This document shows positions 503 to 22,157 of a stretch of DNA of 64,000 nt, piece by piece. Under the pieces are notes generated by a model. The model did not search any database. It was not told the DNA's origin and saw only the letters and a program-made list of their open reading frames with translations. The DNA comes from an uncultured Solibacteraceae bacterium (GTDB taxonomy: Bacteria; Acidobacteriota; Terriglobia; 20CM-2-55-15). The stretch's first letter is position 1. The number at the start of each line of letters is the position of its first letter. The stretch lies in the NCBI GenBank assembly GCA_964584785.1, contig CAZPBY010000011.1, positions 65,877-129,876 on the forward strand, given 5' to 3'. Position numbers and translations under genes: made by a program.

Positions 503-2257
503 TCAGGGCAGAGAAACCGGAATGCCGAGCAGCACCTTCACGGCGACGGGTTCTCCACCGAGTTCAGCCGGCCTGAAAATCCATTTGCCTAAAGCCGCGA
601 GTACGGCCGCGTTCAACTGAGTGTCGGGACTTTGCTTCACCGACAGGTCCTGAAGTTTTCCTTCCGTATTCATGATGGCGTAGACCACGATCATCCTTCG
701 GTCGTATTTCCGCCCCAGTTCCGGTGGGAAATCCGGCTGGACCTTTGTTGCGGGGAACGGCGGAATGATGCCTTCATTCGATTTGCCCGCCGGCACGGAA
801 GGACTGGCGCCCATCACGGCATATTGCAGCGTCCACGACGGCCGCGGCGCGCCGTTGGGTGACTTCATGTCGAGGTAGACGGTGTACGCCTTCTCGTGAA
901 GGAACACGCCGAAATCCGGCAGTCCGCCACCGCTGTTGCCGGTCGATACGATGGTGATGCCATACGAACCGGTCGGAGCCGATGCATTCGACGAGCCCGA
1001 CGAGCCGAGCGTAATCGTTCCCGTGCGCGGCGACGCGGGGTTCCCTGGGCTTCCGGTTTCCAATCGTCCGCCTGTGATCGTCATTCCGCCAAACGGGCTG
1101 CGCGGCGGAGCCGGGGAGGCGCTGGTTTCAGCGTCCTTTGGTTTCACCGCCGTGCTTTCGGGAACGGCTTCCTTTGTGGATGCGGTGCTGGAAGCGGCGG
1201 GCTCCTTCACCGGTTCCTTCGGCGGCTCCTTAGTTGCGTTGTTCGGTGACGTTTCCTTCGGCGGCGCCGCCGGAGGCGCTGCCGCTTTTGTACCGGGCGC
1301 GATTGCGGCCGCCGTCAAGTTCGGTTCCGGCGAGATCGCAACTCGGCCTCGAGCCTCGCCGTTTGGAACCCGGACGACGGGTTCGGGCGGTGACGGCAAC
1401 GGGGTGATCGAAAGCACATTTTCTTTGTCGGGACCTTCCACCGGTACCGGAGCGGTCTTCGCAACTTTGAGTGGTTCGGGTGCCGGCGGAGGCTCCACAG
1501 GTTTTGGCGCAGGTGGCGGCGCCATGACATCGGCAGCAGCGGACGGAAGCGTCACTCGCGGTTGTTTCGCCGAAATCGGCGCAGGGACATTATTCGCGGC
1601 CACCAGAAGCTTTGTATCCGCTTTCGCCAGCTTCGGCTCCGGTTTGACTTCCGGTTTTGGCCGGACGTCCGGAATGGCCGGAGGCTTCGGAGCTTCCATT
1701 TTTGGCAAAGGCGCCGCGTTCGCCATCTGGATCAGGTTCGGCAGCTGGATCGGCGGAGGAATCACAACGGGATTCTCGAGCGCAGGCTGAAGTAATGTTT
1801 GAAACCGGTTTGTCGGGTTCGGCGAATCGGAAACGATCGCTTGGGGTCCGGGATAGCTCATTCCCGGTGCTGGTTTCTTCCTGGCAACTGCGGCGTCACT
1901 CTTTGGTTTGGAGGATTCCTCTGCGGCGGCCTTACCTTCGTCGTCACCCCCGACGCTGGGGAAATAGATCAGCTTCGCTTCATGCCGGATATCCATCATC
2001 AACAATAATTCCGGCGGCGGAGCGGGTTCCGCAAAATATCCGGCGTATACCTGCATGAAGAGCAGGCTGAAGAGAATCACCTCGTGGAATAGTGCCGAAT
2101 AAAGCAGCCCGCGGCTTGGAACCCTGCCGATGCTGGGAGTAGAACCTGTCGCGTATGGAAACGGAATGCCGTAGCGCGTTGGCCACAGTCGCACGGTCGA
2201 GTGCGTGGGCCGGTCGTGAAGGTTCAGAGTAGTGAGCAGAGGCGTCCTTGCCAACAT
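503..2257 (-). CDS. TonB-family energy transducer: N-terminal TM anchor, long Pro/Ala/Lys-rich linker, C-terminal TonB domain
   Basis: The C-terminus (…GKLQDLSVKQSPDTQLNAAVLAALGKWIFRPAELGGEPVAVKVLLGIPVSL) matches the TonB C-terminal fold. PAPPKPEPK-type proline-rich spacer. One hydrophobic helix near the N-terminus. The true start may lie downstream of the first ATG. Confidence 0.6.
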   Translation of the reverse strand: MLARTPLLTTLNLHDRPTHSTVRLWPTRYGIPFPYATGSTPSIGRVPSRGLLYSALFHEVILFSLLFMQVYAGYFAEPAPPPELLLMMDIRHEAKLIYFPSVGGDDEGKAAAEESSKPKSDAAVARKKPAPGMSYPGPQAIVSDSPNPTNRFQTLLQPALENPVVIPPPIQLPNLIQMANAAPLPKMEAPKPPAIPDVRPKPEVKPEPKLAKADTKLLVAANNVPAPISAKQPRVTLPSAAADVMAPPPAPKPVEPPPAPEPLKVAKTAPVPVEGPDKENVLSITPLPSPPEPVVRVPNGEARGRVAISPEPNLTAAAIAPGTKAAAPPAAPPKETSPNNATKEPPKEPVKEPAASSTASTKEAVPESTAVKPKDAETSASPAPPRSPFGGMTITGGRLETGSPGNPASPRTGTITLGSSGSSNASAPTGSYGITIVSTGNSGGGLPDFGVFLHEKAYTVYLDMKSPNGAPRPSWTLQYAVMGASPSVPAGKSNEGIIPPFPATKVQPDFPPELGRKYDRRMIVVYAIMNTEGKLQDLSVKQSPDTQLNAAVLAALGKWIFRPAELGGEPVAVKVLLGIPVSLP

Positions 2258-2263: not shown

Positions 2264-4045
2264 TTAACGGAACAAAGCGGCCTTCAGGACCGTGTAGGCA
2301 ACATTGTTGTTGAGCACCATATTGATGGTGGTGCCGCTGCTCATTTGCAGTTTGTCGCTGATGATGGCGCCGATCACATAGCTCGTCGAACCGGAGCCGC
2401 CCTTGAATTGCACCTGGTCGCCGTAAGCGCTGGATGAGCACGTCGTGTTTGCGCCGGGATCCGCGGAGCCGTCTGCTCCCGCGGTGCATTGATGAATGTA
2501 CATGGCGCCCGCCATGGAGAACTTCGAGCCGCCCGCCAGGACTGGTGTCGCTGCCTGGGCACGGTTCTGGAAAAAGAGAATTCCACGTTGTCTGCCATTC
2601 GGGTTTTTGGTGAGATCGTCTGCGTCCGGATTAGGGTCTCCATAATCGCCCGAACATGGAGCGAGCAGAACACTGCCGGAAATCGTCGTAGGGATGAAGG
2701 TTGGCAATGTCGCACCGGGGCACTTGGAATTGGATGTATCGAAGTTTGTAATGGTACGGTTACCAGGATTGCAATCTCCGCCACTTCCCTGAGCTGAAAA
2801 GGTGTCGTGTTTGCCGTCAGTGTCTGCCATATAGAATATCGTTCCACCGGTACCATCACCTGTATCGGTTGAGGGACGAGCACATCCGGCCGACTTGAGG
2901 GTGAATCCGCCCTTCGAAAGGTAGTAGACGCCCGGCTTGAAGATGATGGTCTTGTCTACCGTGATTCCATTTGTGTAGATGCCGGCGGAGTACTCGTCGC
3001 AGCCGTTAGGGTCCGGACATCCATGGTCGTTCACGTTGTGGGAGACTGTCGGATTGGTGGTCAGTCCCGTGGTGGGCGGAGCCGCGAAGGAGGAAAAGGG
3101 GTCCGAGGCAGGCGTCCCCGGAGAAACCCACTTTGGAGTGCGAGGACTCGTACAAGAAGTCGGCGCATTGGTTGTTGAACACCCCGTTGTGGTGCTGTTC
3201 GGACAGAAGGTGCCACCCCACGCCGACGATGTTGTGGGGCCTCCAAACACCAGAAGCTGTCCACCGCAATAGTCGGGTCCTCCATAGACAAGATTGATCG
3301 TTCCGGTTCCCGTCACTGCGGTTGTACTGCTGGAGTTGATTGCCAGCGTCAGTTCTGCGCCACCCATGATGGTAATAGTGCCATTGTTGTCCAGACTCGA
3401 GCCGGTTGGTGCGAGAAGTCCGATGGGAGCTGCTGATGCTACGTTGACGATGCCGCAAAGTGAAGCCGCCTTGACGTCCGTCGTGTTCGAACTGGAAAGC
3501 AGGCCCAAGAAAAAATTATGAACGCGATCCACCACATCGACACGCATGAGGGAGTTCGACACGGTACTCGATGGAGTAATTCCGGGAACGGGACATGCCG
3601 CACCGGCCGGACATGCGCTCTTGTCCGGGAAACTCACGTACACGTTGATCCCTGCGGTAGTTCCTGTGGAGGTCGCTTGTGCGCGCGTCAAGGTGCTCGA
3701 GTAGCTGTTCTCAGTCGCATACCAGCAGGGTTGAGCCGTGGTGGTGGTATAGCAATCGAAAGCCGTGCCTGACGTAAAATTAGGGTTGAGACCACCTGTA
3801 CCGGTGGGTGCGTGGTTGGCCACGGCCAGCATGTCCATTGCACCGGCGACACAAACGGCGTCGGCGACGTTTTGAGCTGTCTGTCGATGAAACCACAGGT
3901 AGGAATAGTCGACGGCCAAAGCCGCGGCTATGAGAACAAAAAGAGCGAGGCACACCATAACAAGGATGATGGCCTGACCGCTCTCTCGTGGCCGCTCCGT
4001 GCATAGTGTTCCTCTTGTAGTGATGGTTTCCGCCATCGTTAACAT
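2264..4045 (-). CDS. tadG: TadG-like Tad pilus pseudopilin / pilus-assembly protein, unusually large (593 aa), Ser/Thr/Gly/Cys-rich
   Basis: The N-terminus (RESGQAIILVMVCLALFVLIAAALAVDYSYLW) is the TadE/TadG-type hydrophobic segment. The remainder is low-complexity and T/S/G-rich with multiple Cys. It sits immediately downstream of two tadE-like genes. Confidence 0.6.
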   Translation of the reverse strand: MLTMAETITTRGTLCTERPRESGQAIILVMVCLALFVLIAAALAVDYSYLWFHRQTAQNVADAVCVAGAMDMLAVANHAPTGTGGLNPNFTSGTAFDCYTTTTAQPCWYATENSYSSTLTRAQATSTGTTAGINVYVSFPDKSACPAGAACPVPGITPSSTVSNSLMRVDVVDRVHNFFLGLLSSSNTTDVKAASLCGIVNVASAAPIGLLAPTGSSLDNNGTITIMGGAELTLAINSSSTTAVTGTGTINLVYGGPDYCGGQLLVFGGPTTSSAWGGTFCPNSTTTGCSTTNAPTSCTSPRTPKWVSPGTPASDPFSSFAAPPTTGLTTNPTVSHNVNDHGCPDPNGCDEYSAGIYTNGITVDKTIIFKPGVYYLSKGGFTLKSAGCARPSTDTGDGTGGTIFYMADTDGKHDTFSAQGSGGDCNPGNRTITNFDTSNSKCPGATLPTFIPTTISGSVLLAPCSGDYGDPNPDADDLTKNPNGRQRGILFFQNRAQAATPVLAGGSKFSMAGAMYIHQCTAGADGSADPGANTTCSSSAYGDQVQFKGGSGSTSYVIGAIISDKLQMSSGTTINMVLNNNVAYTVLKAALFR

Positions 4046-4081: not shown

Positions 4082-4540
4082 TCAATACACAATGCGGCCC
4101 TGAGCCGCAGCTTTAACGGTTCCCGGACTACCTCCAAGCGTGAAGATCGATACAAATGGATACGTCAGCTCGACGCGCACCCGGTTTGGTGCTTTATTGT
4201 TGCCGTCGAGGTAGCAGATGGAAACCGTCATGCCGGAGTAATTGGCGTAACCGCGGATAACGGAGTCGACTGCAGTGATATTCGTCGCACAGTCGGAACT
4301 TGAACCGGACGCCGGACCGCTTGAAGCGTCGAGCGAAGATGATTTCGTGTTGTAACCGTGCGCGACAGCGTATCGCACGCCTTCCTTGGCCGCGACAGAC
4401 ATGACGACGTAGGTGTACATCAAGAGCACATACTGCAGTGCGGCAAAGATAAAAGTCATGAGCAGGATGGCGGACACCATGAAGTCCACAGTTGCCTGTC
4501 CCCGCTCCGGTGATGTCTTGTTGTGCCTGACGTTTCGCAT
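4082..4540 (-). CDS. tadE: TadE-like pseudopilin (Flp pilus assembly)
   Basis: Start refined to the internal Met (MRNVRHNKTSPERGQATVDFMVSAILLMTFIFAALQY…). This avoids a 61-bp overlap with the upstream gene. ERGQATVxF plus a hydrophobic helix is the TadE-like N-terminal motif. Confidence 0.6.
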   Translation of the reverse strand: MRNVRHNKTSPERGQATVDFMVSAILLMTFIFAALQYVLLMYTYVVMSVAAKEGVRYAVAHGYNTKSSSLDASSGPASGSSSDCATNITAVDSVIRGYANYSGMTVSICYLDGNNKAPNRVRVELTYPFVSIFTLGGSPGTVKAAAQGRIVY

Positions 4541-4557: not shown

Positions 4558-5175
4558 TCAGTTCATCGATCGCATGGAAAGCTGCCGATGAAAGGTACAA
4601 CTGCCCCCGCTGGTGCAAATCGAAACCGGCATCGTCGCCAGGTTAAAGGGGGAGCCGGTGATGATCGGCGAAAAAGTGTAGGTCACATCAACGCGACTTA
4701 GGACGAAATAGGGCGATTCGGGATCGCTGGACGGCAGTGGACTTCCACCGGACGTGTTGGATCCGCAGGTCGACTGATTCGTACAGGTGACGCAGTTTGA
4801 GCGCGTCACGCCACTGGACGTGTAGATGCCGCTGCCGCTAACCAGAACGGCGCTGCTGCAAACCTGAACCTGTGCGCTGGCGTAAGAACCCAGGGCTCCA
4901 TACATGTCCTGGTAAGCCAACGACGTGACGGTACTGCTCGTGGAAGTGGCAGGCGTTGCGGAAGGCAGGCCGCTGGCCTCCCCGGCCGGCGTCGAAAATC
5001 CCAGAATTCCATACTCGAGTGCCGTGCGCGGTGCCGTCGCGATGTTAAGCGCAACAAGAACAAAAAAGCTGAAATTGATGATGTTGAAGATGACGGTCAG
5101 GAGGACGGGCAGAACCAACGCGGTTTCAACGAGGGCCTGGCCTGAATTGCTTTTGAAAATCCGTTTCACTGCCAT
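4558..5175 (-). CDS. tadE: TadE-like pseudopilin (Flp pilus assembly)
   Basis: The N-terminus (SNSGQALVETALVLPVLLTVIFNII) is the canonical TadE/TadF motif. First gene of the minus-strand pseudopilin operon. Confidence 0.65.
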   Translation of the reverse strand: MAVKRIFKSNSGQALVETALVLPVLLTVIFNIINFSFFVLVALNIATAPRTALEYGILGFSTPAGEASGLPSATPATSTSSTVTSLAYQDMYGALGSYASAQVQVCSSAVLVSGSGIYTSSGVTRSNCVTCTNQSTCGSNTSGGSPLPSSDPESPYFVLSRVDVTYTFSPIITGSPFNLATMPVSICTSGGSCTFHRQLSMRSMN

Positions 5176-5344
5176 CGGTTCATCCTAAACCTAAGGGCTA
5201 ATTTTTAACGCGGGGTCCTCGGAGATGCAAGGGCATTCTCGAACTTCCGCGGGTATGCGTTCAACCGCATGACGTCATCAGGGTATTTGACGATGGGCCG
5301 CCCTTGCCAAAACCATGCCTGTAGTGTAACCAGACAAAGCATTC

Positions 5345-6862
5345 TTGCAGCGAGGGAAGTCTTTGACTGAAACGGCAACACTCTTATCGAACTCAACCTT
5401 TGTATCTCGTCCGGCCCGCTGGCTCCGGCTTGTATTCTCTTTTCCGGCGATGCTGGCGGTAATGCTCGGTTGCAACATCTTTATCCTTGCCCGAGGCACA
5501 ATTACCGATCCGGACATCTGGTGGCACAACCGCAACGTCGAATATCTCTTTCAGACGCATCACTTCCCAAACCAGGATGCCTATTCCTTCACCGTTGCCG
5601 GGAAGGATTGGATGAACTATGAGTGGCTTGCCGAAATACCGTTTTACGGCGCGTGGAAAGCCGCAGGACCTGTAGGGATCGAAGTTTTGATGATCATACT
5701 GGTCGAGGTGATTTTCCTCGAACTGCTTTACCTCTGCTACCGCGTGAGCGGTAACATCAAAGCGTCGTTGCTCTCCTGCGCTTTTTGCAGCTACCTGGCG
5801 GTAGTCAATTTCGGTCCGCGCACGATACTGTTTGGCTACGCATTCCTGGTTCTGCTGCTGATCATCCTCGAACGGTTTCGCTCCGGAAAGACCGGTTGCA
5901 TCTGGCTGCTGCCGCCTCTTTTCGCTGTCTGGTCCAACACGCACGGTTCCTGGCTGCTCGGGCTGATCGTGTTCGGTATCGTCGTCGCGGCGGGTTTTGT
6001 TGAGGGGCAATGGGGACGCGTCGAGTCCACGCGTTGGAGCGTCCGCGACATGATCCGCCTGGCCGGCGCCTGGCTGGCAAGCGCTGCCGCTCTTCTGCTG
6101 AATCCGTTCGGCTGGCGAATGGTGGTTTATCCCTTTGAATTTGCCTCGAAGCAGACGCTGAACGTGTCGCATGTCATTGAATGGGCTTCGGTCGACTTCC
6201 ACGATGTCCGCGGCAAGGTGGTCCTGGGTCTGCTGATCGGAATTATTCTCCTGGCGCTGTTTCGCAATCGAAAGTGGGCGCTGGCGGAACTCGGGTTACT
6301 CCTGTTCGGACTCTACTCCGGATTAACCTATGTGCGCTTTCTGTTCTTTCTTGCAGTCCTTATAGCTCCGCTTCTGGCCAAGTTGCTGGACTTCATTCCT
6401 CCGTATCAGCCGGAAATCGACAAGCCGGCGCTGAACGCCGTCTTCATGATTGGCGCGATTGTCGCTATTGCGACTCAGTTCCCCGTGCATTCGGCAACGG
6501 CTCATCAGGCCGACGCAGCCACACAGTTCCCCGCCGGGGCCCTTCCGTATTTTGGGGACCATCCGCTGGAGGGCAATCTTCTGAACTATTACAACTGGGG
6601 CGGCTATCTCGGTTGGCACAATCGTGACCTGAAGGTGTTTATCGACAGCCGTGTCGACATATTCGAGTATGCGGGCGTCCTTCGCGACTACCTGGACATT
6701 GCGGAGCTTCGTGAACCCGATAAGCTGCTGGACAAGTATCAGGTCCGTTATGTGCTGTTCCCGCCATCACACCACTTGACTTACGTTCTGGAGCACGATC
6801 CTCGCTGGAAAGTGAACTATCGCGACTCGGTTAGTGTTCTTTTCGAGCGCAAGTCATCGTGA
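5345..6862 (+). CDS. Polytopic membrane protein, probable GT-C-fold glycosyltransferase/polymerase-like; unassigned family, paralog of 8564..10072
   Basis: About 10 TM helices followed by a roughly 120-aa soluble C-terminal domain. The N-terminal loop motif DPDIWWHNRN…YSFTVAGKDWMNYEWLAEI is conserved with the paralog (DTDLWWHLRN…YSFTAAGAAWVDHSWLSEL). The C-terminal blocks (DSRVDIFEYAGVLRDY / DTRTDIFEYNGVLADY) are also conserved. Confidence 0.55.
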   Translation: MQRGKSLTETATLLSNSTFVSRPARWLRLVFSFPAMLAVMLGCNIFILARGTITDPDIWWHNRNVEYLFQTHHFPNQDAYSFTVAGKDWMNYEWLAEIPFYGAWKAAGPVGIEVLMIILVEVIFLELLYLCYRVSGNIKASLLSCAFCSYLAVVNFGPRTILFGYAFLVLLLIILERFRSGKTGCIWLLPPLFAVWSNTHGSWLLGLIVFGIVVAAGFVEGQWGRVESTRWSVRDMIRLAGAWLASAAALLLNPFGWRMVVYPFEFASKQTLNVSHVIEWASVDFHDVRGKVVLGLLIGIILLALFRNRKWALAELGLLLFGLYSGLTYVRFLFFLAVLIAPLLAKLLDFIPPYQPEIDKPALNAVFMIGAIVAIATQFPVHSATAHQADAATQFPAGALPYFGDHPLEGNLLNYYNWGGYLGWHNRDLKVFIDSRVDIFEYAGVLRDYLDIAELREPDKLLDKYQVRYVLFPPSHHLTYVLEHDPRWKVNYRDSVSVLFERKSS

Positions 6863-6892: not shown

Positions 6893-8581
6893 GTGAATGG
6901 GTCGTTTTTAGCGATGGAGGTGTGTCTGGCTGCTTTGGCGGTCGGCGCCGCTTACATTGCTCCCGGATGGCTCGCGAGTGGGTATCGAAGACTGGACAGT
7001 GTGTTGACTCGCGCATCGCGCCGTCCAGGTGTGGCAGTCCTGGCAATCGGCGCGCTGGCACTCGTCGCCCGGGCGGCGGTGCTGCCGGTGCTGCCGGTTC
7101 CTCAACCGAGAATTCAGGACGAATTCAGCTATCTTCTCGCTGCCGACACTTTTGCCCACGGCCGGATGACGAACCCTGCGCATCCGATGTGGGTTCACTT
7201 CGAAAGCTTCCACATCATCCACAACCCGACCTATGCCTCCATGTACTACCCCGGGTTGGGGCTCATGCTCGCTGCAGGCGAGGTCGTATTCGGCCATCCA
7301 TTCGTCGGCGTGTGGCTGAGTCTGGGATTCATGTGCGCCGCAATTTGTTGGATGCTTCAGGGCTGGCTGCCCGGAAAGTGGGCCGTCCTGGGCGGCTGTA
7401 TCGCCATTGTCCGCGTCGCGATGTTCAGCTACTGGGCGGACAGCTACTTCGGCGGGACACTACCCGCGATCGGTGGTGCGCTGGTTCTTGGAGCTTTGCC
7501 GCGCATTCAACGGCGGCGGCAGGTCCGGCATTCACTTGTGATGGCCGCAGGTCTGGCGATACTTGCGAACACCCGGCCCTGGGAAGGGCTGTTCTTTGGC
7601 ATACCTGTGGCGGCCGTGATAATAGGTTGGATGCTGCAAAAGAACGCTCCGTCCGTGCGAGTATGCATTCGCAGGATCATTCTGCCGATCTCGCTGGCGC
7701 TGGTATTGATCGTTTCCGCCATGGGTTATTACTTCTGGCGCGTCACCGGTAGTCCCTTTCGCATTCCTTACCAGGTCAACATACAGACCTACGGTTTGAT
7801 GTATTTTCCGTGGCAGGAACTGAAGCCGTTGCCTGAGTATCACCATGCGGTGATGCGCGACTTTTACGAAAAATACAGCCTGGACCCGTACCTGAAGGCG
7901 AATTCAAACCCGTCCGACAGGGTGATTGGCACTCTGGCCGGGTTCTGGTTGTTCTATTTCGGGCCGGTTCTCACACTTCCTTTCCTGGTATGGACGGTGA
8001 CCAGGCCTGCCGGCGTGGGGAGGTTTGCCAGCCGGAAAACGCGCTTTTTCGCGGCCGTGTGCCTTGTCACGCTTGTCGGAATCATGCTGCCCATCTACGG
8101 AGCGCAGCCGCACTATGGCGGAGCGTTACTGAGCGCCTTCTATGCACTGCTCTTACAGGCGATGCGGCACACGCGCTTCTGGCGATGGGAAGGGAAACGC
8201 GCTGGAGAAGTCATCATTGCGTCAGTGCTGTGTATCTGCGCCGCGCTTGTTGTCGTGCGTGTTGCGACTCCCTTGCCGTGCGGCAAACTCCGGACCTGGT
8301 GTTCCGAACCCTTCGGCAACACCGATCGGGCAAGGGTATTGGCCGAATTGTCCGCTTATGAGGGAGGGCAGCTGGCTATAGTCCGATATGGACCGAATCA
8401 TGACTCCGTATTCAATGAATGGGTCTACAACGATGCGGGGATCGACCAATCAAAAGTCGTTTGGGCCCGGGAAATGTCACCCGCTGAAGATCGCGAGTTG
8501 ATCCATTACTTCAAAGACCGCCAGGTGTGGCTGGTCGAAGCGGACGAAAAGCCCGCCAGAGTGTCACCTTACCTGCAATGA
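6893..8581 (+). CDS. GT39/GT83-like (PMT/ArnT-type) GT-C membrane glycosyltransferase
   Basis: A multi-TM protein with an acidic DE motif in the first extracytoplasmic loop (PQPRIQDEFSYLLAADTFAHGRMTNPAHPMW). This resembles the DE…HPP loop of PMT_2/ArnT enzymes. Long hydrophobic body. Confidence 0.5.
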   Translation: MNGSFLAMEVCLAALAVGAAYIAPGWLASGYRRLDSVLTRASRRPGVAVLAIGALALVARAAVLPVLPVPQPRIQDEFSYLLAADTFAHGRMTNPAHPMWVHFESFHIIHNPTYASMYYPGLGLMLAAGEVVFGHPFVGVWLSLGFMCAAICWMLQGWLPGKWAVLGGCIAIVRVAMFSYWADSYFGGTLPAIGGALVLGALPRIQRRRQVRHSLVMAAGLAILANTRPWEGLFFGIPVAAVIIGWMLQKNAPSVRVCIRRIILPISLALVLIVSAMGYYFWRVTGSPFRIPYQVNIQTYGLMYFPWQELKPLPEYHHAVMRDFYEKYSLDPYLKANSNPSDRVIGTLAGFWLFYFGPVLTLPFLVWTVTRPAGVGRFASRKTRFFAAVCLVTLVGIMLPIYGAQPHYGGALLSAFYALLLQAMRHTRFWRWEGKRAGEVIIASVLCICAALVVVRVATPLPCGKLRTWCSEPFGNTDRARVLAELSAYEGGQLAIVRYGPNHDSVFNEWVYNDAGIDQSKVVWAREMSPAEDRELIHYFKDRQVWLVEADEKPARVSPYLQ

Positions 8582-10072
8582 ATCTTCGTGCCGGCGCTTG
8601 TAGATGACCGCCTGATGGTCTGAGTAAGCGCGCTCCCACCGGGAAGACTTCGACAGATAGTAGGCCAGAGGTGTGCCTGCCGGATAGATCACATACCCGA
8701 TACTGTACTTATCGAGCAGGTCATCCGTGTTCTGAAACGTCGAGATTGAAAAGTAATCGGCCAATACTCCGTTGTACTCGAAAATGTCCGTCCGCGTGTC
8801 GATGAACGTGGGGATTTCGGGAGCGAACCATTCGACGTATCCTCCCCATTCGTACTGGTTGAATATGTTTCCTGCGCCGTGATTGGCTTTCAGGTAATTC
8901 GTCGCGGATGCCGGAAAGAACGCGTTCACCTGGGCGGTGAGAGTTTGCTCCGCCGGAAAAGCCAGTACCATCGCCAGCGCGATGATGCCGAGGATCGAGG
9001 CGTTGACGATCCTTCGCTCGTTCGAAGGATCGTAGGAACTCAAGCGAGGAAGATGGCGCACCAGAAGCGGCGGCAGGACAATCCCGGTCATCACCAGGAA
9101 ACGAATGTGGGTCAGGCCGCAAAACACCACGAACGCCGTGAGCACTGCGTCGTCGATCCGCCATCGCCCCTTCGGGAACAACGCCGCCGCGAAAACCGCC
9201 GCCAGCGTCACGAGGGCATAAGCACCGAGCCGATCATTGAAATTGATGGAAGCCCACTCGCTGCCGATCGCGACGTTGAATTTCTGGCTGAGCATCAGAT
9301 CGAAGGGATACCGTACGAGCCGCCATCCATACGGATTGACAAAGAGTGCGGCAATCGAGGCCGCAAACACGCTCAGCATCCGTCGGATTTCGGCGGAGGT
9401 CCAGGGCGACGAAGTGAGGCGTCCTTCATACCTCGGGATCAACCCGGAGCCGAAGATCAGTCCGAATATCACCATTCCCATCGGCCAACCACCATGCAAA
9501 TTGATCCACAACGTGAACAGCGGTGGTATCAGCCACAGCGGGGCGTTTCTCGTATCCCTGAACCGCAGCAGGATTGCGAAGAGTGCCACAAAGCAGAGCC
9601 AGCCGAAGTTTTGGGCGCGAGGCGTAAAGCCGACCCCGGCCAGCAAGCCTCCGAACACAGCGGCGAGTCCGGCTACCAACGGGTCCGCGGCTCGTTTGAC
9701 GCACAACTGGAAGATCGCTATGCCAATCACTGCCACGCTAATAGCAAAGATCACAAATACGCCGCGCATCCCAAGGGTCTGATAGCCGGCATGGTAGATG
9801 AGTTCCGAAAGCCACGAATGGTCGACCCAGGCGGCGCCGGCGGCGGTGAAGGAATATGAATCGACGTTCGGCAGCCGGAAGTTGGAAACGATGTATCGAG
9901 CGTTGCGAAGATGCCACCACAGGTCGGTGTCGACCAGATTACCGCGGCATGTCCAGAATGCTTTGGCTGCGATGATGGCCATGAGGACCGTCGGGAAAGT
10001 GAAGAATCCGCCGTGTACTGGCCTCGTCAGCCGATCGGCTTTTGGAGTCTCCATAATAGGTCCGTGCAGCAT
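8564..10072 (-). CDS. Polytopic membrane protein, same unassigned 'DxWWH' family as 5345..6862
   Basis: Clear paralogy with 5345..6862 along its whole length. Convergent with the GT39-like gene, with 18-bp 3' overlap. Confidence 0.55.
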   Translation of the reverse strand: MLHGPIMETPKADRLTRPVHGGFFTFPTVLMAIIAAKAFWTCRGNLVDTDLWWHLRNARYIVSNFRLPNVDSYSFTAAGAAWVDHSWLSELIYHAGYQTLGMRGVFVIFAISVAVIGIAIFQLCVKRAADPLVAGLAAVFGGLLAGVGFTPRAQNFGWLCFVALFAILLRFRDTRNAPLWLIPPLFTLWINLHGGWPMGMVIFGLIFGSGLIPRYEGRLTSSPWTSAEIRRMLSVFAASIAALFVNPYGWRLVRYPFDLMLSQKFNVAIGSEWASINFNDRLGAYALVTLAAVFAAALFPKGRWRIDDAVLTAFVVFCGLTHIRFLVMTGIVLPPLLVRHLPRLSSYDPSNERRIVNASILGIIALAMVLAFPAEQTLTAQVNAFFPASATNYLKANHGAGNIFNQYEWGGYVEWFAPEIPTFIDTRTDIFEYNGVLADYFSISTFQNTDDLLDKYSIGYVIYPAGTPLAYYLSKSSRWERAYSDHQAVIYKRRHEDSLQVR

Positions 10073-10088: not shown

Positions 10089-11456
10089 CTAAATCAGTTT
10101 CTTGTATCGGAATACTGCGGGAATCAAAGAATCCAGCCGTGACTGGCTGGGATACAGCTGGAATAATTCGAAACAAGTCCGAGAACCATTCGCCTCGGCG
10201 TGGACGTAGCATTCCAGCACCATCTTCTTGTGCTCCGTCACGTAATCGGCCGCACTCCAAATGCTCCGGTCTTGCGCAACCGTACTGAAGAGAAGATAGC
10301 CCAGCATCGCCGTTTTGAAGTAACTTCCATACCGAAGATCCGAAAAGACAAAGAACAGCCCGACCGGCACAAGCATCGTGTAGCTGACATATCGCGAAGA
10401 AAGAGCCTGATTGGCGCCAAATGAGGATCGGCCCAGGGTTATCAGCAAGGCGAACATCACTCCGTAGCCGACAAGAAACGTTCCTGTAAGCGCATTTCGC
10501 CGATCGCTGGAGCGAAGGCCGGCAACTCCAATCGTTCCGGCGAGCAGCGTTGCCAACACCAGCACAAAAGCAAGTGGAGTCGTTGCCGGACCCGGCGAGA
10601 ATATTCCAGCGCCTAGCGCGAAAAACCCCTTACTGATCGCCGCCATGAAATAAACAACCATGTTTGCGGAAAGCCGGGAAGCCGGGCTGACCTGGAAGTC
10701 CCGGGCAAATCCCACGAAATAAGACGCAATGATCAGTGTGTTGGCGGCGGTGAAAGCGATCCATTGAGGAGTAGCCTGTTTTTCCTCGCGGTGTTCGAAT
10801 ACCAGGAACAGCGCCGTTATGAACGGTAGCAGCAGACCATGAAGACTCGAATATGCACTCAGAAGAGAAAGGACAGTAAGAGCGACGTTTCGCCGCGTGC
10901 GCAGATTCCCTGGGCAAAGGTTCACGACGAGAAGCCACAAGACCGCGAACCACAGCGGCAAGATGAACATGAGTTGGAAGCCCCAGATGAGGTTTTCCAT
11001 CTGAAGTATGTTGAGGACCGTCAGAGGTATGACAAGGTCCAGAACAGAAATCCTTCCGGCGGTCTTGTACCTCAGCAGAACGAGACCTGCCGCGGCAGCG
11101 AAAATAAGAGTGGCTGTCACGTAGATCTCGACGGTCTGGCTCCAGTTCGTTAACCTGGCCAGCCCTTTCATCAAAAGCAAACCGACACCGATTCGATGCT
11201 CGTCATGCTGCGATAGAAGGAGTTCCTTTAGTGAGGCGTTGCCGATTAAAAGACTGCCGACATCCCACTCATCCCAGAAAGGGACATTGACCGCGTTGCT
11301 CACGACGAAGCGGAAGAAGTGGCGGCAAATGACGCAGGCGCCCAGCGCGAAGAGCACCAACTGTGCTTTAGTCGACAACAACAGGTGTGCCGGCGACCTT
11401 CTGGTGTTATGCCATTCCATTCGGCAACTCGGAGTGCAGCCGGACCTGAAAGACAA
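10089..11456 (-). CDS. Polytopic integral membrane protein, possible GT-C glycosyltransferase
   Basis: At least 10 predicted TM helices. Acidic loop motif FWDEWD near the N-terminus. No recognisable soluble domain. It lies within a cluster of GT-C genes. Confidence 0.4.
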   Translation of the reverse strand: MSFRSGCTPSCRMEWHNTRRSPAHLLLSTKAQLVLFALGACVICRHFFRFVVSNAVNVPFWDEWDVGSLLIGNASLKELLLSQHDEHRIGVGLLLMKGLARLTNWSQTVEIYVTATLIFAAAAGLVLLRYKTAGRISVLDLVIPLTVLNILQMENLIWGFQLMFILPLWFAVLWLLVVNLCPGNLRTRRNVALTVLSLLSAYSSLHGLLLPFITALFLVFEHREEKQATPQWIAFTAANTLIIASYFVGFARDFQVSPASRLSANMVVYFMAAISKGFFALGAGIFSPGPATTPLAFVLVLATLLAGTIGVAGLRSSDRRNALTGTFLVGYGVMFALLITLGRSSFGANQALSSRYVSYTMLVPVGLFFVFSDLRYGSYFKTAMLGYLLFSTVAQDRSIWSAADYVTEHKKMVLECYVHAEANGSRTCFELFQLYPSQSRLDSLIPAVFRYKKLI

Positions 11457-12654
11457 GGAACGTCAGTATGGGTAGTGACACCAGGAAGAAATGAGAAGGC
11501 ATCACAAACAACAAGAACGGAGCGGCAAGCATCCCGACACACGTCAACACCATGAAAAAGGGGAAGCGGTTCAGGATGTAGTCGCCCGCTATCAAGCGAT
11601 TCAAGAGAATCGCGACCGGAATCACCAGGTAACAGACGTCATGAACGAACGCATAGTAGCTGACCGTCACACTCACCGTGATCGCAACAAGGAACGCGGT
11701 GCCCGAAGACGCCTTGCGCAATGCCGGCCGTGTCGCGACAACCATCAAAGTGAGCATCGATGCGGTAGCGATGGCAATTTGTATCCATGTTTCCGGCCAA
11801 CGGCCATTCGCTAGCCCAAAGATGAGTCCGCGCAGATTGGCCATGAGTGTGACATCGAGAGGAAATCCTCCGCCTGCGCCGACGGAAAACAACGACCGCG
11901 CAAAGATAACGGCTTTGGCAGGACCGATCACCATCAGGGAAACTACAAGAGCAGCCCCAGTCGACATAGCGAAGCCTGAAAGGAATCGCCAGCGTCGCCA
12001 GACCAGAAACAGTAAGGCAATCGGGCCGACAATTTGAGGCTTGAATGCGCCAAGTCCGACGAGCAGGCCCGCCGGGAGATCCTTGCCGTCATCCAGGTAG
12101 ACGAAAGCGGACGCCAGAAGCGCCAGTAGAATGACGGAATCCTGTCCTTGAATCAGGGCCACGCAGACCGGCAGGAATGCCGGAAACAGCAGTGCAGGCA
12201 ACCATCTCCAGCAACGAGCAATCTCAGCGAGCTTCGACCTGAGGACGTGTACCGTCAGGCCGAGCACAACAAAATTGATGCCCAGAAACATCAGGTAAGC
12301 GGCGCGATAATTCAGCAGTGAGAGCGGAACGAACAGAAGCGCCTGGTACGCCGGCCTGATGAATGGGAGCGCACCCTGTTCCACACTAACGACAGCATTT
12401 TGGAAGTGCCACTGCGATTCATAGTTATACAACTCGCTGGAGTGGCCCGTGCGCACCATGTACCCGGCTGTGTAGAGTTGACGGAAATCCGCGTGGCCGC
12501 TCAAGGCCGTAGGCAAAAAGGCGAGCAACACCAGCATTTGAAAACTGGCGAGAAGAGGAACCAGCGCCAAAGTGGCGTCCTTCGTCAGCTTGGGCAAGTC
12601 CAGTTGATCGAGCCACGAACGCAAATGGCCCTGGAAGTCGTTTCGCATTGTCAT
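11407..12654 (-). CDS. DUF2029 / GT87-like (PimE-type) polyprenol-phosphate-mannose-dependent glycosyltransferase
   Basis: The N-terminal loop (ADFRQLYTAGYMVRTGHSSELYNYE) matches the DF..Y…G…LY signature of DUF2029/GT87. Multi-TM. Paralog of 12745..14022. Confidence 0.55.
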   Translation of the reverse strand: MTMRNDFQGHLRSWLDQLDLPKLTKDATLALVPLLASFQMLVLLAFLPTALSGHADFRQLYTAGYMVRTGHSSELYNYESQWHFQNAVVSVEQGALPFIRPAYQALLFVPLSLLNYRAAYLMFLGINFVVLGLTVHVLRSKLAEIARCWRWLPALLFPAFLPVCVALIQGQDSVILLALLASAFVYLDDGKDLPAGLLVGLGAFKPQIVGPIALLFLVWRRWRFLSGFAMSTGAALVVSLMVIGPAKAVIFARSLFSVGAGGGFPLDVTLMANLRGLIFGLANGRWPETWIQIAIATASMLTLMVVATRPALRKASSGTAFLVAITVSVTVSYYAFVHDVCYLVIPVAILLNRLIAGDYILNRFPFFMVLTCVGMLAAPFLLFVMPSHFFLVSLPILTFLVFQVRLHSELPNGMA

Positions 12655-12744: not shown

Positions 12745-14022
12745 TCAGGCAATCGTTTGTTTATCGGCACTACTATTCCCGGAAAGGTGGACGGCGGCGA
12801 TCGCGAATGTAATCAGTATGGGACACATGACGTACATGTGCAGCCCCTTCAGACCTATCGCGACAATGGGAACGCCGAATAACAGCAAACTACTCGCACT
12901 AAGCGCTGTTCTCCACCACCCCTGTCCAAACCTGAAATCCGGGCAACCGAGGACTAGAAGAACGGCGAGCAGCATCAGGCTCAGGTCGTGGTAAAGCGAA
13001 TGAAAACCAGTGACGATCGATACTGCGAGTGCTGCGGCAAAGAGCAATTCCGGTCGCCCCCCGCTTCCGAGATCCTGGCGGCGCCAAACCCAGGCTACAA
13101 ACGCGATTAGTGAAATTGCAGTTAGCGCAGAAAGCAGAGTAATCCACGATGGAGCGATTCGACCGCTGAGGACGACCTGGAAGAAGCTGTTTACGGACAT
13201 CATGTGGAAAGCAGGAACAATGCCGTTATACGGATGGGCCGGGTTCGTCGCGATTCCAAAGAGCAGCTGGACGTAGGAACGCACGCCATCGACGCCTACA
13301 GCGACAATGGATATCACTCCGAGAATCATTGCCATGGTGGCTAGTCCGGCAAGGGTTGCCCACTTCCGGCGCACCAGGTAAATCAAGGCAAACGGCACAA
13401 CAAGTTGAAACCGAAAGAGCCCAAGCCCCAGAAACAGACCCGCGCGATAATCACGTCCTGCTTTGACGCTCAGGTAGACCAGCGAGTACAGCACAAGCAA
13501 CACGATCGAGGTCTGACCCTGGAGAAATGCGACCCACACCGGCAGGTAGGCAAAACAAAGTATCAGGTACTGGAAGGTTGGGGTTGGAACTGGGGCAAAT
13601 GGGCGAATGGCCCAACAAAACCAAAGCCAAAGCAGGATGTCGATAAGACCCCATAGAAAGTAGGCTTGGAAATACGACATCCAGGCGAAAGGCATGACGA
13701 AGAGAGCTTCAAACGGCGGGTGAATCACAGGCAGCAGCCCGGAAATGTGAAAGACTTCCTTCTCGGCGTTCATCTGCTCCTGGAAATCGTACAGATGGGC
13801 AGCATCGCCATGACGCATGATCCAGGCTGCGATGTACATGCTGTTGAAATCATTTCGGGCCGCTTCGCGGGATACGACTTCAAATCCAAGTACTGCCAGA
13901 AGCAACAGGACAGTGACGGCAACGCCGATTCGAACGTCCCGTACCGATGTCTGGCCGCCATCTGACATTTTGCTGGTGACTCCGCCTCGCCAGGCCGGAT
14001 CGTAACACGCCAAAGGACCCAC
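12745..14022 (-). CDS. DUF2029 / GT87-like membrane glycosyltransferase (paralog)
   Basis: NDFNSMYIAAWIMRHGDAAHLYDF is the same signature as in the neighbouring paralog. Multi-TM. Confidence 0.55.
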   Translation of the reverse strand: MGPLACYDPAWRGGVTSKMSDGGQTSVRDVRIGVAVTVLLLLAVLGFEVVSREAARNDFNSMYIAAWIMRHGDAAHLYDFQEQMNAEKEVFHISGLLPVIHPPFEALFVMPFAWMSYFQAYFLWGLIDILLWLWFCWAIRPFAPVPTPTFQYLILCFAYLPVWVAFLQGQTSIVLLVLYSLVYLSVKAGRDYRAGLFLGLGLFRFQLVVPFALIYLVRRKWATLAGLATMAMILGVISIVAVGVDGVRSYVQLLFGIATNPAHPYNGIVPAFHMMSVNSFFQVVLSGRIAPSWITLLSALTAISLIAFVAWVWRRQDLGSGGRPELLFAAALAVSIVTGFHSLYHDLSLMLLAVLLVLGCPDFRFGQGWWRTALSASSLLLFGVPIVAIGLKGLHMYVMCPILITFAIAAVHLSGNSSADKQTIA

Positions 14023-14834: not shown

Positions 14835-15020
14835 ATGGCTAAGATGCAGCATTTATTTAACGCCCTCCACCAGGACGAAAGCGGCCAAGGATTGGTCGAA
14901 TACGTTCTCGTCATCGCGCTCATCGCACTCGGATCGGTTGCCACAATGTCCAGCGCCGCAAGCGCAATCGCCCAGGCGTTCGACAAGCTCGACAACAAGC
15001 TGGTCAGCGCACTGCCGTAA
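14835..15020 (+). CDS. flp: Flp-family type IVb/c prepilin (Tad pilus major pilin), copy 1
   Basis: 61 aa with the canonical Flp motif ESG|QGLVEYVLVIALIALG (G↓XXXXEY prepilin peptidase site). Good RBS (aggaga) 7 nt upstream. Confidence 0.85.
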   Translation: MAKMQHLFNALHQDESGQGLVEYVLVIALIALGSVATMSSAASAIAQAFDKLDNKLVSALP

Positions 15021-15451: not shown

Positions 15452-15637
15452 ATGGCCAAGATGGATCGTTTACTGAATGACCTTCACACCGATGAAAGCG
15501 GTCAGGGGTTGGTCGAGTACGTGCTCGTAATCGCGTTAATCGCATTAGGGTCCGTTGCGACAATGTCCAGCGCCGCAAGTTCAATCGCGCAAGCGTTCAA
15601 TAAGCTCAACAACAAGCTCATTAGCGCCGTTCCGTAG
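15452..15637 (+). CDS. flp: Flp-family prepilin, copy 2
   Basis: 61 aa with DESG|QGLVEYVLVIALIALGSVATMSSAAS. The mature region differs from copy 1 at 5 residues and the leader differs more. Many synonymous DNA differences. Confidence 0.85.
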   Translation: MAKMDRLLNDLHTDESGQGLVEYVLVIALIALGSVATMSSAASSIAQAFNKLNNKLISAVP

Positions 15638-15765
15638 ACTGCTCCCAGCTTCATGTGCGTTTAAGAGATCGTGCCGGTGTCGAAAGGTGCCGGCCAGATC
15701 CTTATTCTACCCACATTTCTGGAAACGGGCCTGGTGTTAACCGGGCTTCATCTATCGGAGAACGA

Positions 15766-16279
15766 CGTGATCTTTGCTTTGGCGATCGCTGTGGTAGCCG
15801 CCGTCGCAGATTTGCGTACTAAGCGGATACCCAACTGGTTGACGTACGGAGGGATTATTAGCGCTTTAGCTGGGCGTCTAGTGATGCTGGGTTGGCCTGG
15901 CCTGAAAGACGGGCTGGAAGGCATGCTTCTCGGCTCTTCCGTTTTCCTGATTCTATTTGTGCTCGGCGGAATGGGCGGCGGTGACGTCAAACTGATGGCC
16001 GCTGTCGGCGCGTTTGCGGGAACAGCCTCGATCGCGCCGCTTTTGATCGCGACTGCAGTAGCAGGTGGTGTCATGGCGGTGGTCATGATGACACTTCGCG
16101 GTCGGATACTGATAACGCTGTGGAACAGTCTTGAACTAGCGCGTCATCACATGACGGCCGGGCTGCAGCCACACCCCGTATTGAATGTGCGTGAGTCTCA
16201 TTCGATGCGATTACCATTCGCGCCGGCTATCGCCGCTGGAGTTTTGTATTGTTTGAGCCAGACATTTCCGTGGAGGTGA
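15766..16279 (+). CDS. cpaA: Prepilin peptidase CpaA/TadV (A24 peptidase family)
   Basis: …AVADLRTKRIPNWLTYGG… and the GGGDVKLMAAVGAF motif. GTG start at 15766 preceded by ggag gives a typical roughly 170-aa CpaA. The longer ORF from 15671 is less likely. Confidence 0.7.
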
Positions 16280-16282
16280 TTC

Positions 16283-17200
16283 ATGGACCTGCGCCGCATA
16301 TTAATTGCATTCGCGCTATCCGCTGTCATATCGACAGCATTAACCGTACTGCTTGCGAAGAAGTTGCGTCCGAGTAGCTCGGGCCCCGCTGTCATCCAGG
16401 TGGTTGCAGCTTCGAAGCAGCTGGCGGCCGGTGTTCCGCTTACCGCACAGGATCTGACAACTATCTCGTGGCCGTCGAACATCCCATTGAACGGATCGGT
16501 TAACAAGACTGAAGACGTGATCGGACATCCACTCCGCGTTTCCGTCGATGCGATGCAGCCTATTTTGGACCGGGATCTCGCTGCGGCTGGATCCGGGTTC
16601 GGCCTCGCGGCAAGGATTCCTGCCGGGATGCGCGCCACCGCGGTTCGATCGAACGAGATCGTCGGCGTTGCAGGCTTTCTTTTTCCTGGTTCACGAGTGG
16701 ATGTGCTGGCGACGTACGCCTTGTCGAACGGCCCTCTGGCCGGTCTTCTGGGCGGAGGTTCGCAGACGTCCACGCAAACAGTACTGCAAAATGTAGAGGT
16801 CCTTACCGCCGGTACAGCCACGGAACCGGATCCGCAAGGACGACCGCAGACAGTCAATGTCGTCACACTATTGCTTACGCCTGAGGACTCACAAAAGCTG
16901 TTGCTCGCAAGTTCTCAGGGTTCCATTCAATTTGTACTGCGCAGCGGCGTGGATCGCGACAAGTTGACGATTCCACCAACTCGGATTAGCCAGTTGACCG
17001 ACGCCAGCAACGCTCCGCTTGCGGAGCAGCTGATGAATGCCGTGACACGAGCGCCGCGAGCGCAGGCACCAGCGCCTGCTCCTGCTCCGGCCCCCGTTGT
17101 TCAGGCGCCGCCGGCACCGAAAGCGCCGGAACCGTACGTCGTTGAAGTGATACAGGGCACACAGAGATCGACTCAGAAATTTGCAGGACCTGGTCAATAG
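16283..17200 (+). CDS. cpaB: Flp pilus assembly protein CpaB/RcpC
   Basis: N-terminal TM, SAF-like region, Pro/Ala-rich C-terminus. Position between cpaA and the secretin. Confidence 0.75.
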   Translation: MDLRRILIAFALSAVISTALTVLLAKKLRPSSSGPAVIQVVAASKQLAAGVPLTAQDLTTISWPSNIPLNGSVNKTEDVIGHPLRVSVDAMQPILDRDLAAAGSGFGLAARIPAGMRATAVRSNEIVGVAGFLFPGSRVDVLATYALSNGPLAGLLGGGSQTSTQTVLQNVEVLTAGTATEPDPQGRPQTVNVVTLLLTPEDSQKLLLASSQGSIQFVLRSGVDRDKLTIPPTRISQLTDASNAPLAEQLMNAVTRAPRAQAPAPAPAPAPVVQAPPAPKAPEPYVVEVIQGTQRSTQKFAGPGQ

Positions 17201-17202
17201 CC

Positions 17203-18561: not shown

Positions 18562-18563
18562 TC

Positions 18564-19808: not shown

Positions 19809-19813
19809 CGACA

Positions 19814-21187
<1,374 letters not shown>

Positions 21188-21199
21188 AAGGAGCATGCG

Positions 21200-22153
21200 A
21201 TGATTCTTGTGATCTTTATCGTGGTGTTGGGCCTCTCGCTCGGCATCCAGCTCTTTGTTCTGAAGTCGACGAAATCCGAGAAGGCAATCGAACGTCAGCT
21301 TGCCGACATCCGGGAGACTCGGAAAGAGGGAGAGAAAACCGCCTCCATTCTCAAGGAAGAGCGGCTCAGTCCTGTTCCGTGGATGCATGACGTCCTCGCC
21401 AAGATTCCTCTCTCGTCAAGATGGGTTTACCTGATCAAGCAGGCGGGCGTGAAGTGGTTTGTATCCTCGCTCGTTATTTCCACGATCGGTCTGGCTCTCG
21501 CGGGTGCCGTGGCTGCTGCGATATTCGTGACGAATTCTTTCATTATTCTTGCCGCCGGCTTGATGGCCGGCGCAATTCCTTACGGATATCTGGCGGTGTT
21601 GCGGTATCAAAAGGTTCAAGCCTGCGGCGCTCAGTTGCCTCAAGCCGTCGAGTTGATGGCGAGGGCGCTCAAAGCAGGGCACGCTCTCAATTCCGCGCTC
21701 GAAATGGTAAGCCAGGACGTGCCGGAACCTTTGGCCACGGAGTTTCGAACCGTTCACGAGCAGCAGAACCTCGGATTGCCTTTGCGTGATGCTTTGATAA
21801 ACCTATCGCGACGGATACCGCACAACGACATGAAGTTTCTGATCACAGCGCTGCTGCTGCAGAAGGAAACCGGTGGAAACCTTGTCCAGATTCTGGAGAC
21901 GGCGTCGTTTCTGGTGCGGCAGCGCGCACGAACACGTAAGCAGATCAAGATCTATACCTCGCAGGCTCGTGCGAGTGCGTGGGTGGTAGGGTTGATGCCT
22001 TTCCTCTTATTCGTTATCTTGAGCGTGTACGACCCAAGCTACGAGATGCAGCTGCTTAATGATCCGACCGGCTCGCGTATTTTCAGCGGAAGCCTGGTCT
22101 TACTGACGATCGGTGTTGTTTTGATCCGGAAGATCGTCGCTGCGAAAGTGTGA
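21200..22153 (+). CDS. tadB: TadB inner-membrane platform protein (GspF-like)
   Basis: T2SSF-like TM topology. Position after cpaF. Confidence 0.8.
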   Translation: MILVIFIVVLGLSLGIQLFVLKSTKSEKAIERQLADIRETRKEGEKTASILKEERLSPVPWMHDVLAKIPLSSRWVYLIKQAGVKWFVSSLVISTIGLALAGAVAAAIFVTNSFIILAAGLMAGAIPYGYLAVLRYQKVQACGAQLPQAVELMARALKAGHALNSALEMVSQDVPEPLATEFRTVHEQQNLGLPLRDALINLSRRIPHNDMKFLITALLLQKETGGNLVQILETASFLVRQRARTRKQIKIYTSQARASAWVVGLMPFLLFVILSVYDPSYEMQLLNDPTGSRIFSGSLVLLTIGVVLIRKIVAAKV

Positions 22154-22157
22154 AGCC

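Follow-up and report, generated by a model that had tools for sequence, protein, structure and literature searches.

A TadG-like minor pilin with a predicted beta-solenoid module beside a conserved island of glycosyltransferase-like membrane proteins in an acidobacterial Tad locus

The window, i.e., the whole stretch of 64,000 nt analyzed here from contig CAZPBY010000011.1 of an uncultured Solibacteraceae bacterium, contains a Tad pilus locus with a tadG-like gene (2264..4045, minus strand), an open reading frame (ORF) of 593 amino acids (aa). On the basis of its Pfam Tad domain, its homologues and its AlphaFold2 (AF2) model, the gene product, termed TadG, was classified as a TadG/CpaL-type minor-pilin-like protein. 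TadG is probably a minor pilin of the pilus tip that carries a disulfide-locked beta-solenoid as its display module, and its conspicuous amino acid composition probably follows from this fold. A great many bacteria attach to surfaces by means of Tad pili, and the origin of their tip specificity has been studied only recently.

Domain structure, predicted fold and family of TadG

The N-terminal TadE/G segment that had been proposed for the protein from the sequence letters in a first-pass annotation was confirmed by a match of aa 23-71 to PF13400 (‘Tad’, putative Flp pilus-assembly TadE/G-like) with an E-value of 4.1e-8 and a score of 33.9 bits against a cut-off of 22.3 bits. PF13400 is the single Pfam domain of TadG, and no NCBIfam model matched the protein. 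A von Willebrand factor A (vWA) module was detected neither by Pfam or NCBIfam nor in the AF2 model. Two parts can be distinguished. The first (3818..4045, minus strand) encodes a leader (aa 1-22, ending in RESG|Q) and a long hydrophobic pilin-type alpha1 helix, which was delimited by DSSP to aa 22-76 of the model. The second (2267..3817, minus strand) encodes aa 77-593, a beta-rich and, as judged from the strands of the model, Foldseek matches and Cys conservation, beta-solenoid-like module in which ten Cys and the C-terminal strand (LKAaLfR) are conserved.

Structure prediction with the family alignment yielded a confident model, with a mean predicted local distance difference test (pLDDT) value of 83.5, a predicted template modelling score (pTM) of 0.78 and pLDDT values of at least 70 for 499 of the 593 residues. 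The modelled helix comprises 55 residues, matching the alpha1 helix of type IV pilins in length, and is followed by about 35 short beta-strands, of which the conserved terminal strand spans aa 585-591. Low confidence was confined to the leader and a few loops. When the model was compared with PDB structures using Foldseek, the best and only significant match was the pilin ComZ (6qvi_A; E-value 1.3e-4, probability 0.89, template modelling (TM) score 0.20, 8% identity). The weak matches below ComZ were almost all beta-helical proteins, namely ice-binding proteins, tapirins, pertactin and TPS domains. Foldseek against viral structures returned nothing significant, and the TadG profile gave only noise against PDB sequences.

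Among 5.8 billion proteins searched, 320 homologues were found. The best 120 of these were 526-632 aa long, covered 93-100% of the query and were 36-44% identical to it; some are named ‘pilus assembly protein TadG-related’ and originate from Terriglobia or Acidoferrales. In a scan of GTDB with one genome per species, 80 loci with full-length TadG orthologues were found, essentially all of them in Acidobacteriota, with identities reaching down to about 30%. The homologues have overall lengths of 526-718 aa with a mean of about 590 aa. TadG/CpaL proteins have been described as minor-pilin-like tip subunits of about 600 residues which, like Thermus ComZ, have a large insert ahead of the donor C-terminal strand (PMC13533445). 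Since the homologues and the described TadG/CpaL proteins are of similar size, the earlier view of TadG as unusually large was not supported by the length comparison.

The alignment of 43 family members revealed conservation from end to end, with 48 invariant columns that include eight Cys (C65, C98, C107, C197, C343, C349, C442 and C464). C520 and C536 were present in 40 of the 43 sequences, and C388 and C425 in about 60%. When used alone, the C-terminal 514 residues matched only 293 clusters (50% identity) of 1.84 billion representatives. In the full-length matches, which are mostly 520-690 aa long, the aligned part began at about residue 70-100; the module was always found behind a TadG N-terminus, and shorter matches look like fragments. 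TadG is a typical representative of a TadG-related family that spans the lineage and in which the predicted beta-solenoid replaces vWA.

These features make the following mode of action probable. The short leader and the 55-residue hydrophobic helix would anchor TadG in the inner membrane, where it would join TadE1 and TadE2, two TadE-like minor pilins of the same operon, in the complex that initiates pilus assembly and would eventually be located at the tip. The other approximately 515 residues would form a compact beta-solenoid-like module that is held by five or six disulfides and takes the place of the vWA domain of CpaL; C98-C107, C343-C349, C442-C464, C520-C536 and C65-C197 are the candidate disulfide pairs. 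Shown at the tip, the module may serve as an adhesive or recognition surface. The role of a disulfide-stabilized tip adhesin that had been suggested for TadG thus fits the predicted fold, with ten Cys present in at least 40 of 43 homologues and the tip pilin ComZ as best structural match. The TadG family would then illustrate that, in abundant soil Acidobacteria, the large tip subunit can swap vWA for a predicted disulfide-locked beta-solenoid.

Composition of TadG and its bearing on glycosylation

As noted in the first-pass annotation, TadG is rich in Thr, Ser, Gly and Asn and contains more than ten Cys. Thr accounts for 13.2% of the residues, Gly for 11.1%, Ala for 10.5%, Ser for 9.6% and Asn for 5.7%, and 17 of the 20 Cys lie beyond the membrane helix. 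The Ser plus Thr (S+T) content of 22.8% compares with 12.3 ± 3.2% in the 38 other window proteins, and the Cys content of 3.4% with 0.9 ± 0.7%; S+T+G+N amounts to 39.6%. The accompanying description of the protein as low-complexity and, by composition, mucin-like or O-glycosylated did not hold. Low-entropy windows of 12 residues contain 8.6% of the TadG residues as compared to 6.9 ± 6.0% in the other window proteins, which is an ordinary fraction. Together with the full-length conservation and the pLDDT values, this indicates that the protein is neither mucin-like nor disordered.

The composition is relevant for a reading that takes TadG as the main acceptor of the neighboring membrane enzymes, an island of GT-C-like, GT87 and other proteins described below, and in which the pilus tip is coated with O-linked glycans attached to the Ser and Thr residues of TadG. 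The TadG orthologues from the GTDB scan were grouped according to the presence (45 loci, linked) or absence (9 loci, unlinked) of a homologue of this GT-C island in their 10-kb flanks. Acidobacteriaceae such as Granulicella and Edaphobacter belong to the unlinked cases. Linked and unlinked orthologues were indistinguishable, with S+T contents of 18.7% and 18.8%, S+T+G+N contents of 37.3% and 37.1%, 16 and 14 Cys, and lengths of 597 and 569 aa, respectively. The finding that the first-pass annotation had named as speaking against its proposal, orthologues of the same size and composition that occur widely without linked glycosyltransferases, was thus obtained by half: composition is independent of the linkage, yet most orthologues are linked. 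Because linked and unlinked orthologues do not differ, the S/T/G/N/Cys bias is a trait of the TadG family and of an extracellular beta-rich fold, not a mucin-like glycosylation signal.

Conservation of the potential acceptor residues pointed in the same direction. Just 21 of the 135 Ser/Thr positions of TadG are Ser or Thr in at least 70% of the homologues, while 56 are so in less than 30%, and the region that contains them is confidently folded and not disordered, which argues against TadG as the main acceptor. N-x-S/T sequons were found 7 times with 7.4 ± 2.4 expected, and the sole conserved one, N237-S-S, is present in 30 of 43 homologues. An N-glycoprotein, i.e., a substrate of an oligosaccharyltransferase (OST), was rejected, as the sequons are neither enriched nor conserved beyond N237-S-S. 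Analysis of sequence and sequons revealed no acceptor motif in TadG. Since the bias is equal with or without linked glycosyltransferases and sequons are not enriched, the composition is therefore no evidence for glycosylation. More generally, a composition rich in Ser, Thr, Gly, Asn and Cys is no evidence of glycosylation for a secreted beta-rich protein.

TadE1, with 27.3% S+T and 2.9% Cys, exceeds TadG in S+T, and by composition alone it is the stronger glycosylation candidate. The TonB_C-like protein encoded downstream of tadG has a classic Pro-rich linker. Both observations count against TadG as the main acceptor.

Some points weigh against the interpretation of TadG as a tip pilin with a beta-solenoid module whose composition is explained by its fold. 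The TadG family is known here from sequences and predicted structures. We infer the beta-solenoid from the predicted model, its DSSP pattern and weak structural matches, which support it with a TM score of just 0.20 for ComZ and non-significant values for the rest. Moreover, the G-Q pair of the class III signal site is conserved across the family (ESG|QA), but position +5 is Leu in TadG and Glu in no family member, while TadE1, TadE2 and Flp have Glu or Asp at +5. Since Glu at +5 is lacking, processing of TadG by the prepilin peptidase and its incorporation into the fibre are not assured. Finally, the window TadG is at the top of the family range, with an S+T content of 22.8% as compared to 18.7 ± 2.8% and with 20 Cys as the maximum. 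It also carries a lineage-specific S/T/P/C-rich insert of 19 aa (aa 286-304, TTGCSTTNAPTSCTSPRTP; 3134..3190, minus strand), which is the sole mucin-like stretch of TadG, is aligned with gaps in 50% or more of the family members and is common only to the homologue P0003. Because of the top-of-range S+T and Cys values and this S/T/P-rich surface loop, which would favor TadG as an acceptor, an extra modification of the window TadG itself is conceivable.

The minor-pilin operon and the adjacent membrane protein island

The tadG gene is the third gene of a minus-strand operon with the order tadE1-tadE2-tadG-TonB_C-like. The first gene, tadE1 (4558..5175, minus strand), encodes a TadE-like minor pilin of 205 aa (Pfam TadE) with orthologues of 35-52% identity in nearly all related loci. 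The second TadE-like minor pilin (Pfam TadE) is encoded by tadE2 (4082..4540, minus strand), for which an ATG start at 4540 is likely (152 aa; the listed ORF extends to 4618); orthologues of 150-171 aa occupy the same position. The last gene (503..2257, minus strand) starts 6 nt past the tadG stop codon and encodes a 584-aa protein with one N-terminal transmembrane helix, a Pro/Ala/Lys/Ser/Thr-rich linker of about 350 aa and a TonB_C domain (Pfam E-value 2.4e-5). Directly downstream of tadG, 32 of 51 related loci have an orthologue of this gene. The linker of the TonB-like protein is of a type that is classically targeted by O-glycosylation.

Divergent from tadE1 starts an island of six polytopic membrane proteins, four of which are named by their length in aa. 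The first two are encoded on the plus strand, namely M505 (5345..6862) and M562 (6893..8581), a protein without Pfam family that has an invariant D76-E77 motif and orthologues in many related loci. The other four are encoded on the minus strand: M502 (8564..10072), a paralogue of M505 with 36% identity by blastp, M455 (10089..11456; 455 aa, no Pfam match) and two GT87-family glycosyltransferases (11407..12654, Pfam GT87 E-value 3e-21; 12745..14022, E-value 2e-21). For M455, no orthologue was present in the related loci examined.

M505 belongs to a family with more than 1,400 matches. The 120 listed relatives are 53-99% identical to M505; the few named ones among them are annotated as ‘hypothetical protein’, and Pfam domains are absent from all of them. 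The homologue P0121, 99% identical to M505, starts 39 codons later, which gives a 466-aa alternative. Pfam searches with E-values up to 10 returned nothing for M505, M562, M502 and M455, nor did Pfam match the family members of M505 and M562 (35 and 16 sequences). NCBIfam returned nothing for the TadE and membrane proteins. AF2 modelling of M505 (pLDDT 83.2, pTM 0.83) followed by Foldseek gave matches with probability 1.0 to yeast STT3 (E-value 1.7e-7, TM score 0.60) and then to the C-mannosyltransferase DPY19, AglB, PglB, AftD, ALG12 and ArnT. An invariant D55-P-D57 motif, whose two Asp residues are found in each of 35 sequences, follows immediately on the first transmembrane helix (aa 33-49), i.e., at the canonical catalytic position of GT-C enzymes. 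M505 is thus predicted to adopt the GT-C fold and appears to form, with M502, an undescribed GT-C family. Since a WWDxG motif is absent from M505, the nearest sequences being WWH (aa 59-61) and WGGY (aa 418-421), it was not filed as an OST in the strict sense (STT3/PglB/AglB). M562 belongs to no assigned family, and only its D76-E77 motif suggests a GT-C nature. The hhalign comparisons of M562 with PMT_2 and with M505, like that of M505 with PMT_2, gave probabilities below 3%; a search of M562 against PDB sequences returned nothing.

The association of such genes with the minor-pilin operon, as had been assumed for the window, was found to be conserved. In all five metagenomic relatives, an M505 orthologue (46-58% identity) is located divergently beside the genes for a sigma-54 activator, TadE1, TadE2 and TadG; M562, GT87 or PMT_2 genes often adjoin it, and the TonB_C-like gene follows tadG in four of the five. 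Among the GTDB loci with at least 8 kb of upstream sequence, 45 of 54 contain an island homologue. An M505-type gene directly precedes tadE1 in 40 of 56 species-level loci (about 70%), in 37 of the 40 divergently, and its distance to tadE1 is either about 2.1 kb, approximately the size of the sigma-54 activator gene in annotated relatives, or 90-850 bp, a range that includes the window. Reciprocally, the three M505 orthologues picked without regard to TadG all adjoin Tad minor-pilin genes and a PMT_2/GT87 block.

Within the window, the M505 start is located 1.3 kb from the tadG start, and the divergent intergenic region between tadE1 and M505 (5176..5344, or to 5461 with the 466-aa start of M505) spans 170-286 bp. 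The distance and the divergent orientation given in the first-pass annotation were therefore correct; co-promotion, which it had added, was not borne out. Neither a sigma-70-like promoter nor a sigma-54 promoter (TGGCAC-N5-TTGC with up to two mismatches) was found in this region, so that shared promoter use is unverified; the whole window contains 44 matches to the sigma-54 motif as compared to 66 by chance. As a side observation, the minor-pilin operon of the relatives L001, L002, L004, L005, L006, L087 and L088 opens with a gene for a sigma-54-dependent response regulator (Sigma54_activat), which is absent from the window. Since the window lacks both this gene and a sigma-54 promoter match at 5176-5461, the regulation of its operon may differ from that of its relatives.

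A second side observation concerns a Pfam-less protein of 151-156 aa with a single transmembrane helix, which is encoded right behind the M505 orthologue in six relatives (L002, 3939-4397; L004, 1380-1850; L005, 4821-5276; L006, 4696-5151; L087, 11807-12262; L088, 11738-12202) and is absent from the window. With a single transmembrane helix only, it was rejected as a GtrA-like flippase.

The minor-pilin operon, and not flp, is the conserved partner of M505, because the pairing holds in loci without nearby flp genes and also where flp follows tadG. This is relevant for the possibility that the island glycosylates the major Flp pilin, e.g., as a shield against phages, with TadG as a bystander, comparable to TfpW, PilO and PglL, which act on type IVa pilins, or AglB, which acts on archaeal pilins. 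Known pilin glycosylation systems indeed act on the major pilin. In the window, two Flp-type pilins are encoded in tandem on the plus strand, flp1 (14835..15020; 61 aa), identified from its ORF translation and from homologues annotated as Flp_Fap in related loci, and flp2 (15452..15637), whose product is 84% identical to Flp1 by comparison of the translations. Both contain the processing site DESG|QGLVEY, and several Ser and Thr are found in mature Flp. The island is located between the minor-pilin operon and flp-cpaA here and in several relatives. However, 19 of the 40 loci with M505 adjacent to tadE1 have no flp or cpa gene within 10 kb, and M505 remains upstream of tadE1 where flp lies downstream of tadG. 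The Flp pilin is thus an improbable principal target.

Alternatively, the membrane enzymes may synthesize or modify a glycolipid or polysaccharide of the periplasm or cell surface (e.g., an adhesive matrix) whose only tie to the Tad pili is co-regulation, or M505 may be non-catalytic. Lipids and polysaccharides are common substrates of GT-C and GT87 enzymes, and ArnT, AftD and ALG12 are among the structural matches of M505. The presence of several different GT-C-like genes per locus would suit stepwise glycan building, and the lack of an acceptor motif in TadG is also in line with this explanation. It is nevertheless doubtful: the position-specific divergent pairing of M505 with tadE1 in about 70% of the species-level loci is more specific than co-regulation usually needs, and M505 is more likely to be active given that its DPD motif is invariant and occupies the canonical catalytic position.

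With respect to TadG as the main acceptor, the genetic context is more favorable than the composition. The divergent neighborhood of M505 and tadE1-tadE2-tadG is conserved, the GT-C gene tracks the minor-pilin operon and not flp, the best structural matches of M505 (STT3, DPY19, AglB and PglB) modify proteins, and TfpW provides a precedent for the glycosylation of a type IV pilin (bioRxiv 10.1101/2020.04.19.049825). However, adjacency cannot choose among four co-operonic proteins, and in view of the composition data TadG is unlikely to be the main acceptor.

As suggested by the conserved synteny, a periplasmic GT-C pathway may glycosylate some product of the Tad locus or minor-pilin operon. 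Independently of the role proposed for TadG at the tip, the minor-pilin operon is evolutionarily coupled to periplasm-facing GT-C-type enzymes (M505, its paralogue, GT87 or PMT_2), and polyprenyl-phosphate sugars would serve as donors for the glycosylation of some operon product, either ahead of assembly or while it proceeds. TadG, TadE1, TadE2 and the TonB_C-like protein are candidate acceptors; TadG is not favored over the others, and the Pro-rich linker of the TonB_C-like protein is the most classical target. Tentatively, Terriglobia may be proposed to glycosylate their Tad tip complex by a multi-enzyme periplasmic pathway dedicated to this purpose, founded on the M505 GT-C family with its STT3/DPY19-like fold and DPD motif, co-evolved with tadE1-tadE2-tadG and with the TadG beta-solenoid as one acceptor. 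If true, no such glycosylation system would have been described before for minor pilins of bacterial Tad (type IVc) pili. In the literature, no relevant paper on the glycosylation of Tad/Flp pili or on GT-C linkage to Tad pili in Acidobacteria was found. The pairing of a Pfam-less GT-C-like protein with a minor-pilin operon provides a testable lead to possible Tad-pilus glycosylation and to a new GT-C family.

The window contains a complete flp-cpaA-F-tadBC locus, 11 kb from the tadG operon and beyond the block of membrane proteins and a gene for a DnaJ-domain protein. Downstream of the flp genes, the Tad machinery (15671..23066, plus strand) comprises the cpaA/tadV peptidase, cpaB/rcpC, the cpaC secretin, cpaE/tadZ, the cpaF/tadA ATPase, tadB and tadC, as identified by the Pfam matches Peptidase_A24, RcpC, Secretin, AAA_31/Response_reg, T2SSE and, twice, T2SSF. 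The CpaE/TadZ homologue (18564-19808, plus strand) has a response-regulator receiver domain ahead of its ParA/MinD-like ATPase domain. The DnaJ-domain protein (14096-14704, plus strand; 202 aa) is encoded between the GT87 and flp genes. Further downstream, a purine-biosynthesis cluster (purB, purQ, purL, purF, purM and a purN-like gene) is followed by tyrS (25754-33512, plus strand); long antisense ORFs over this cluster (e.g., 30437-31651 and 31855-32793) are probably spurious.

Comparison with known pilus and glycosylation systems

The closest described counterparts of TadG are TadG of Aggregatibacter actinomycetemcomitans and CpaL of Caulobacter crescentus. They share with the window protein the TadE/G-like N-terminal segment, the size of about 600 residues, two small TadE/F-type partners and a module located before the C-terminal strand. 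CpaL consists of a pilin module and vWA (PMC12607857), whereas in the window protein vWA was not detected, the module is Cys-rich and beta-solenoid-like, and there is no sequence similarity beyond the N-terminus.

TadEFG homologues form variable tips, and KilL, KilM and KilN of Myxococcus xanthus are the TadE/F/G homologues (PMC12075869). As described there, the Kil ‘Tip’ complexes likewise comprise three minor pilins, the largest of which exposes a variable tip domain that gives the Tad pilus its specificity. They differ in being part of a predation apparatus, and no glycosyltransferase linkage was found in the available part of this source; the likeness lies in the described make-up of the complexes.

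ComZ of Thermus thermophilus (PDB 6qvi) combines a pilin fold with a large beta-solenoid insertion that is presumably located at the pilus tip, and a comparable architecture is predicted for TadG. Unlike TadG, it belongs to a type IVa competence pilus and is implicated in DNA uptake, for which nothing suggests a role of the window TadG.

As to the membrane enzymes, actinobacterial protein O-mannosylation is initiated by PMT/GT39 enzymes and extended by GT87 enzymes of the PimE type, which use polyprenyl-phosphate-mannose at the periplasmic face; the usual acceptors are S/T/P-rich segments. The co-occurrence of PMT_2-like and GT87 enzymes in related loci is reminiscent of this system. The window differs from it in that it has no Pfam PMT_2 match, no genes for the synthesis of a polyprenyl-phosphate sugar donor were seen in it, and M505 and M562 fall outside known families.

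TfpW of Pseudomonas aeruginosa, a member of the GT-C superfamily, is the nearest functional precedent for the pairing of M505 with Tad genes. This polytopic protein is encoded beside the genes for group IV pilins and, in the periplasm, glycosylates the type IV pilin with a sugar taken from a lipid carrier (bioRxiv 10.1101/2020.04.19.049825). TfpW targets a type IVa major pilin, to which it adds D-arabinofuranose, and no sequence family in common with M505 was detected. In contrast, M505 is paired with a Tad minor-pilin operon, and up to six GT-C-like genes stand in the place of one.

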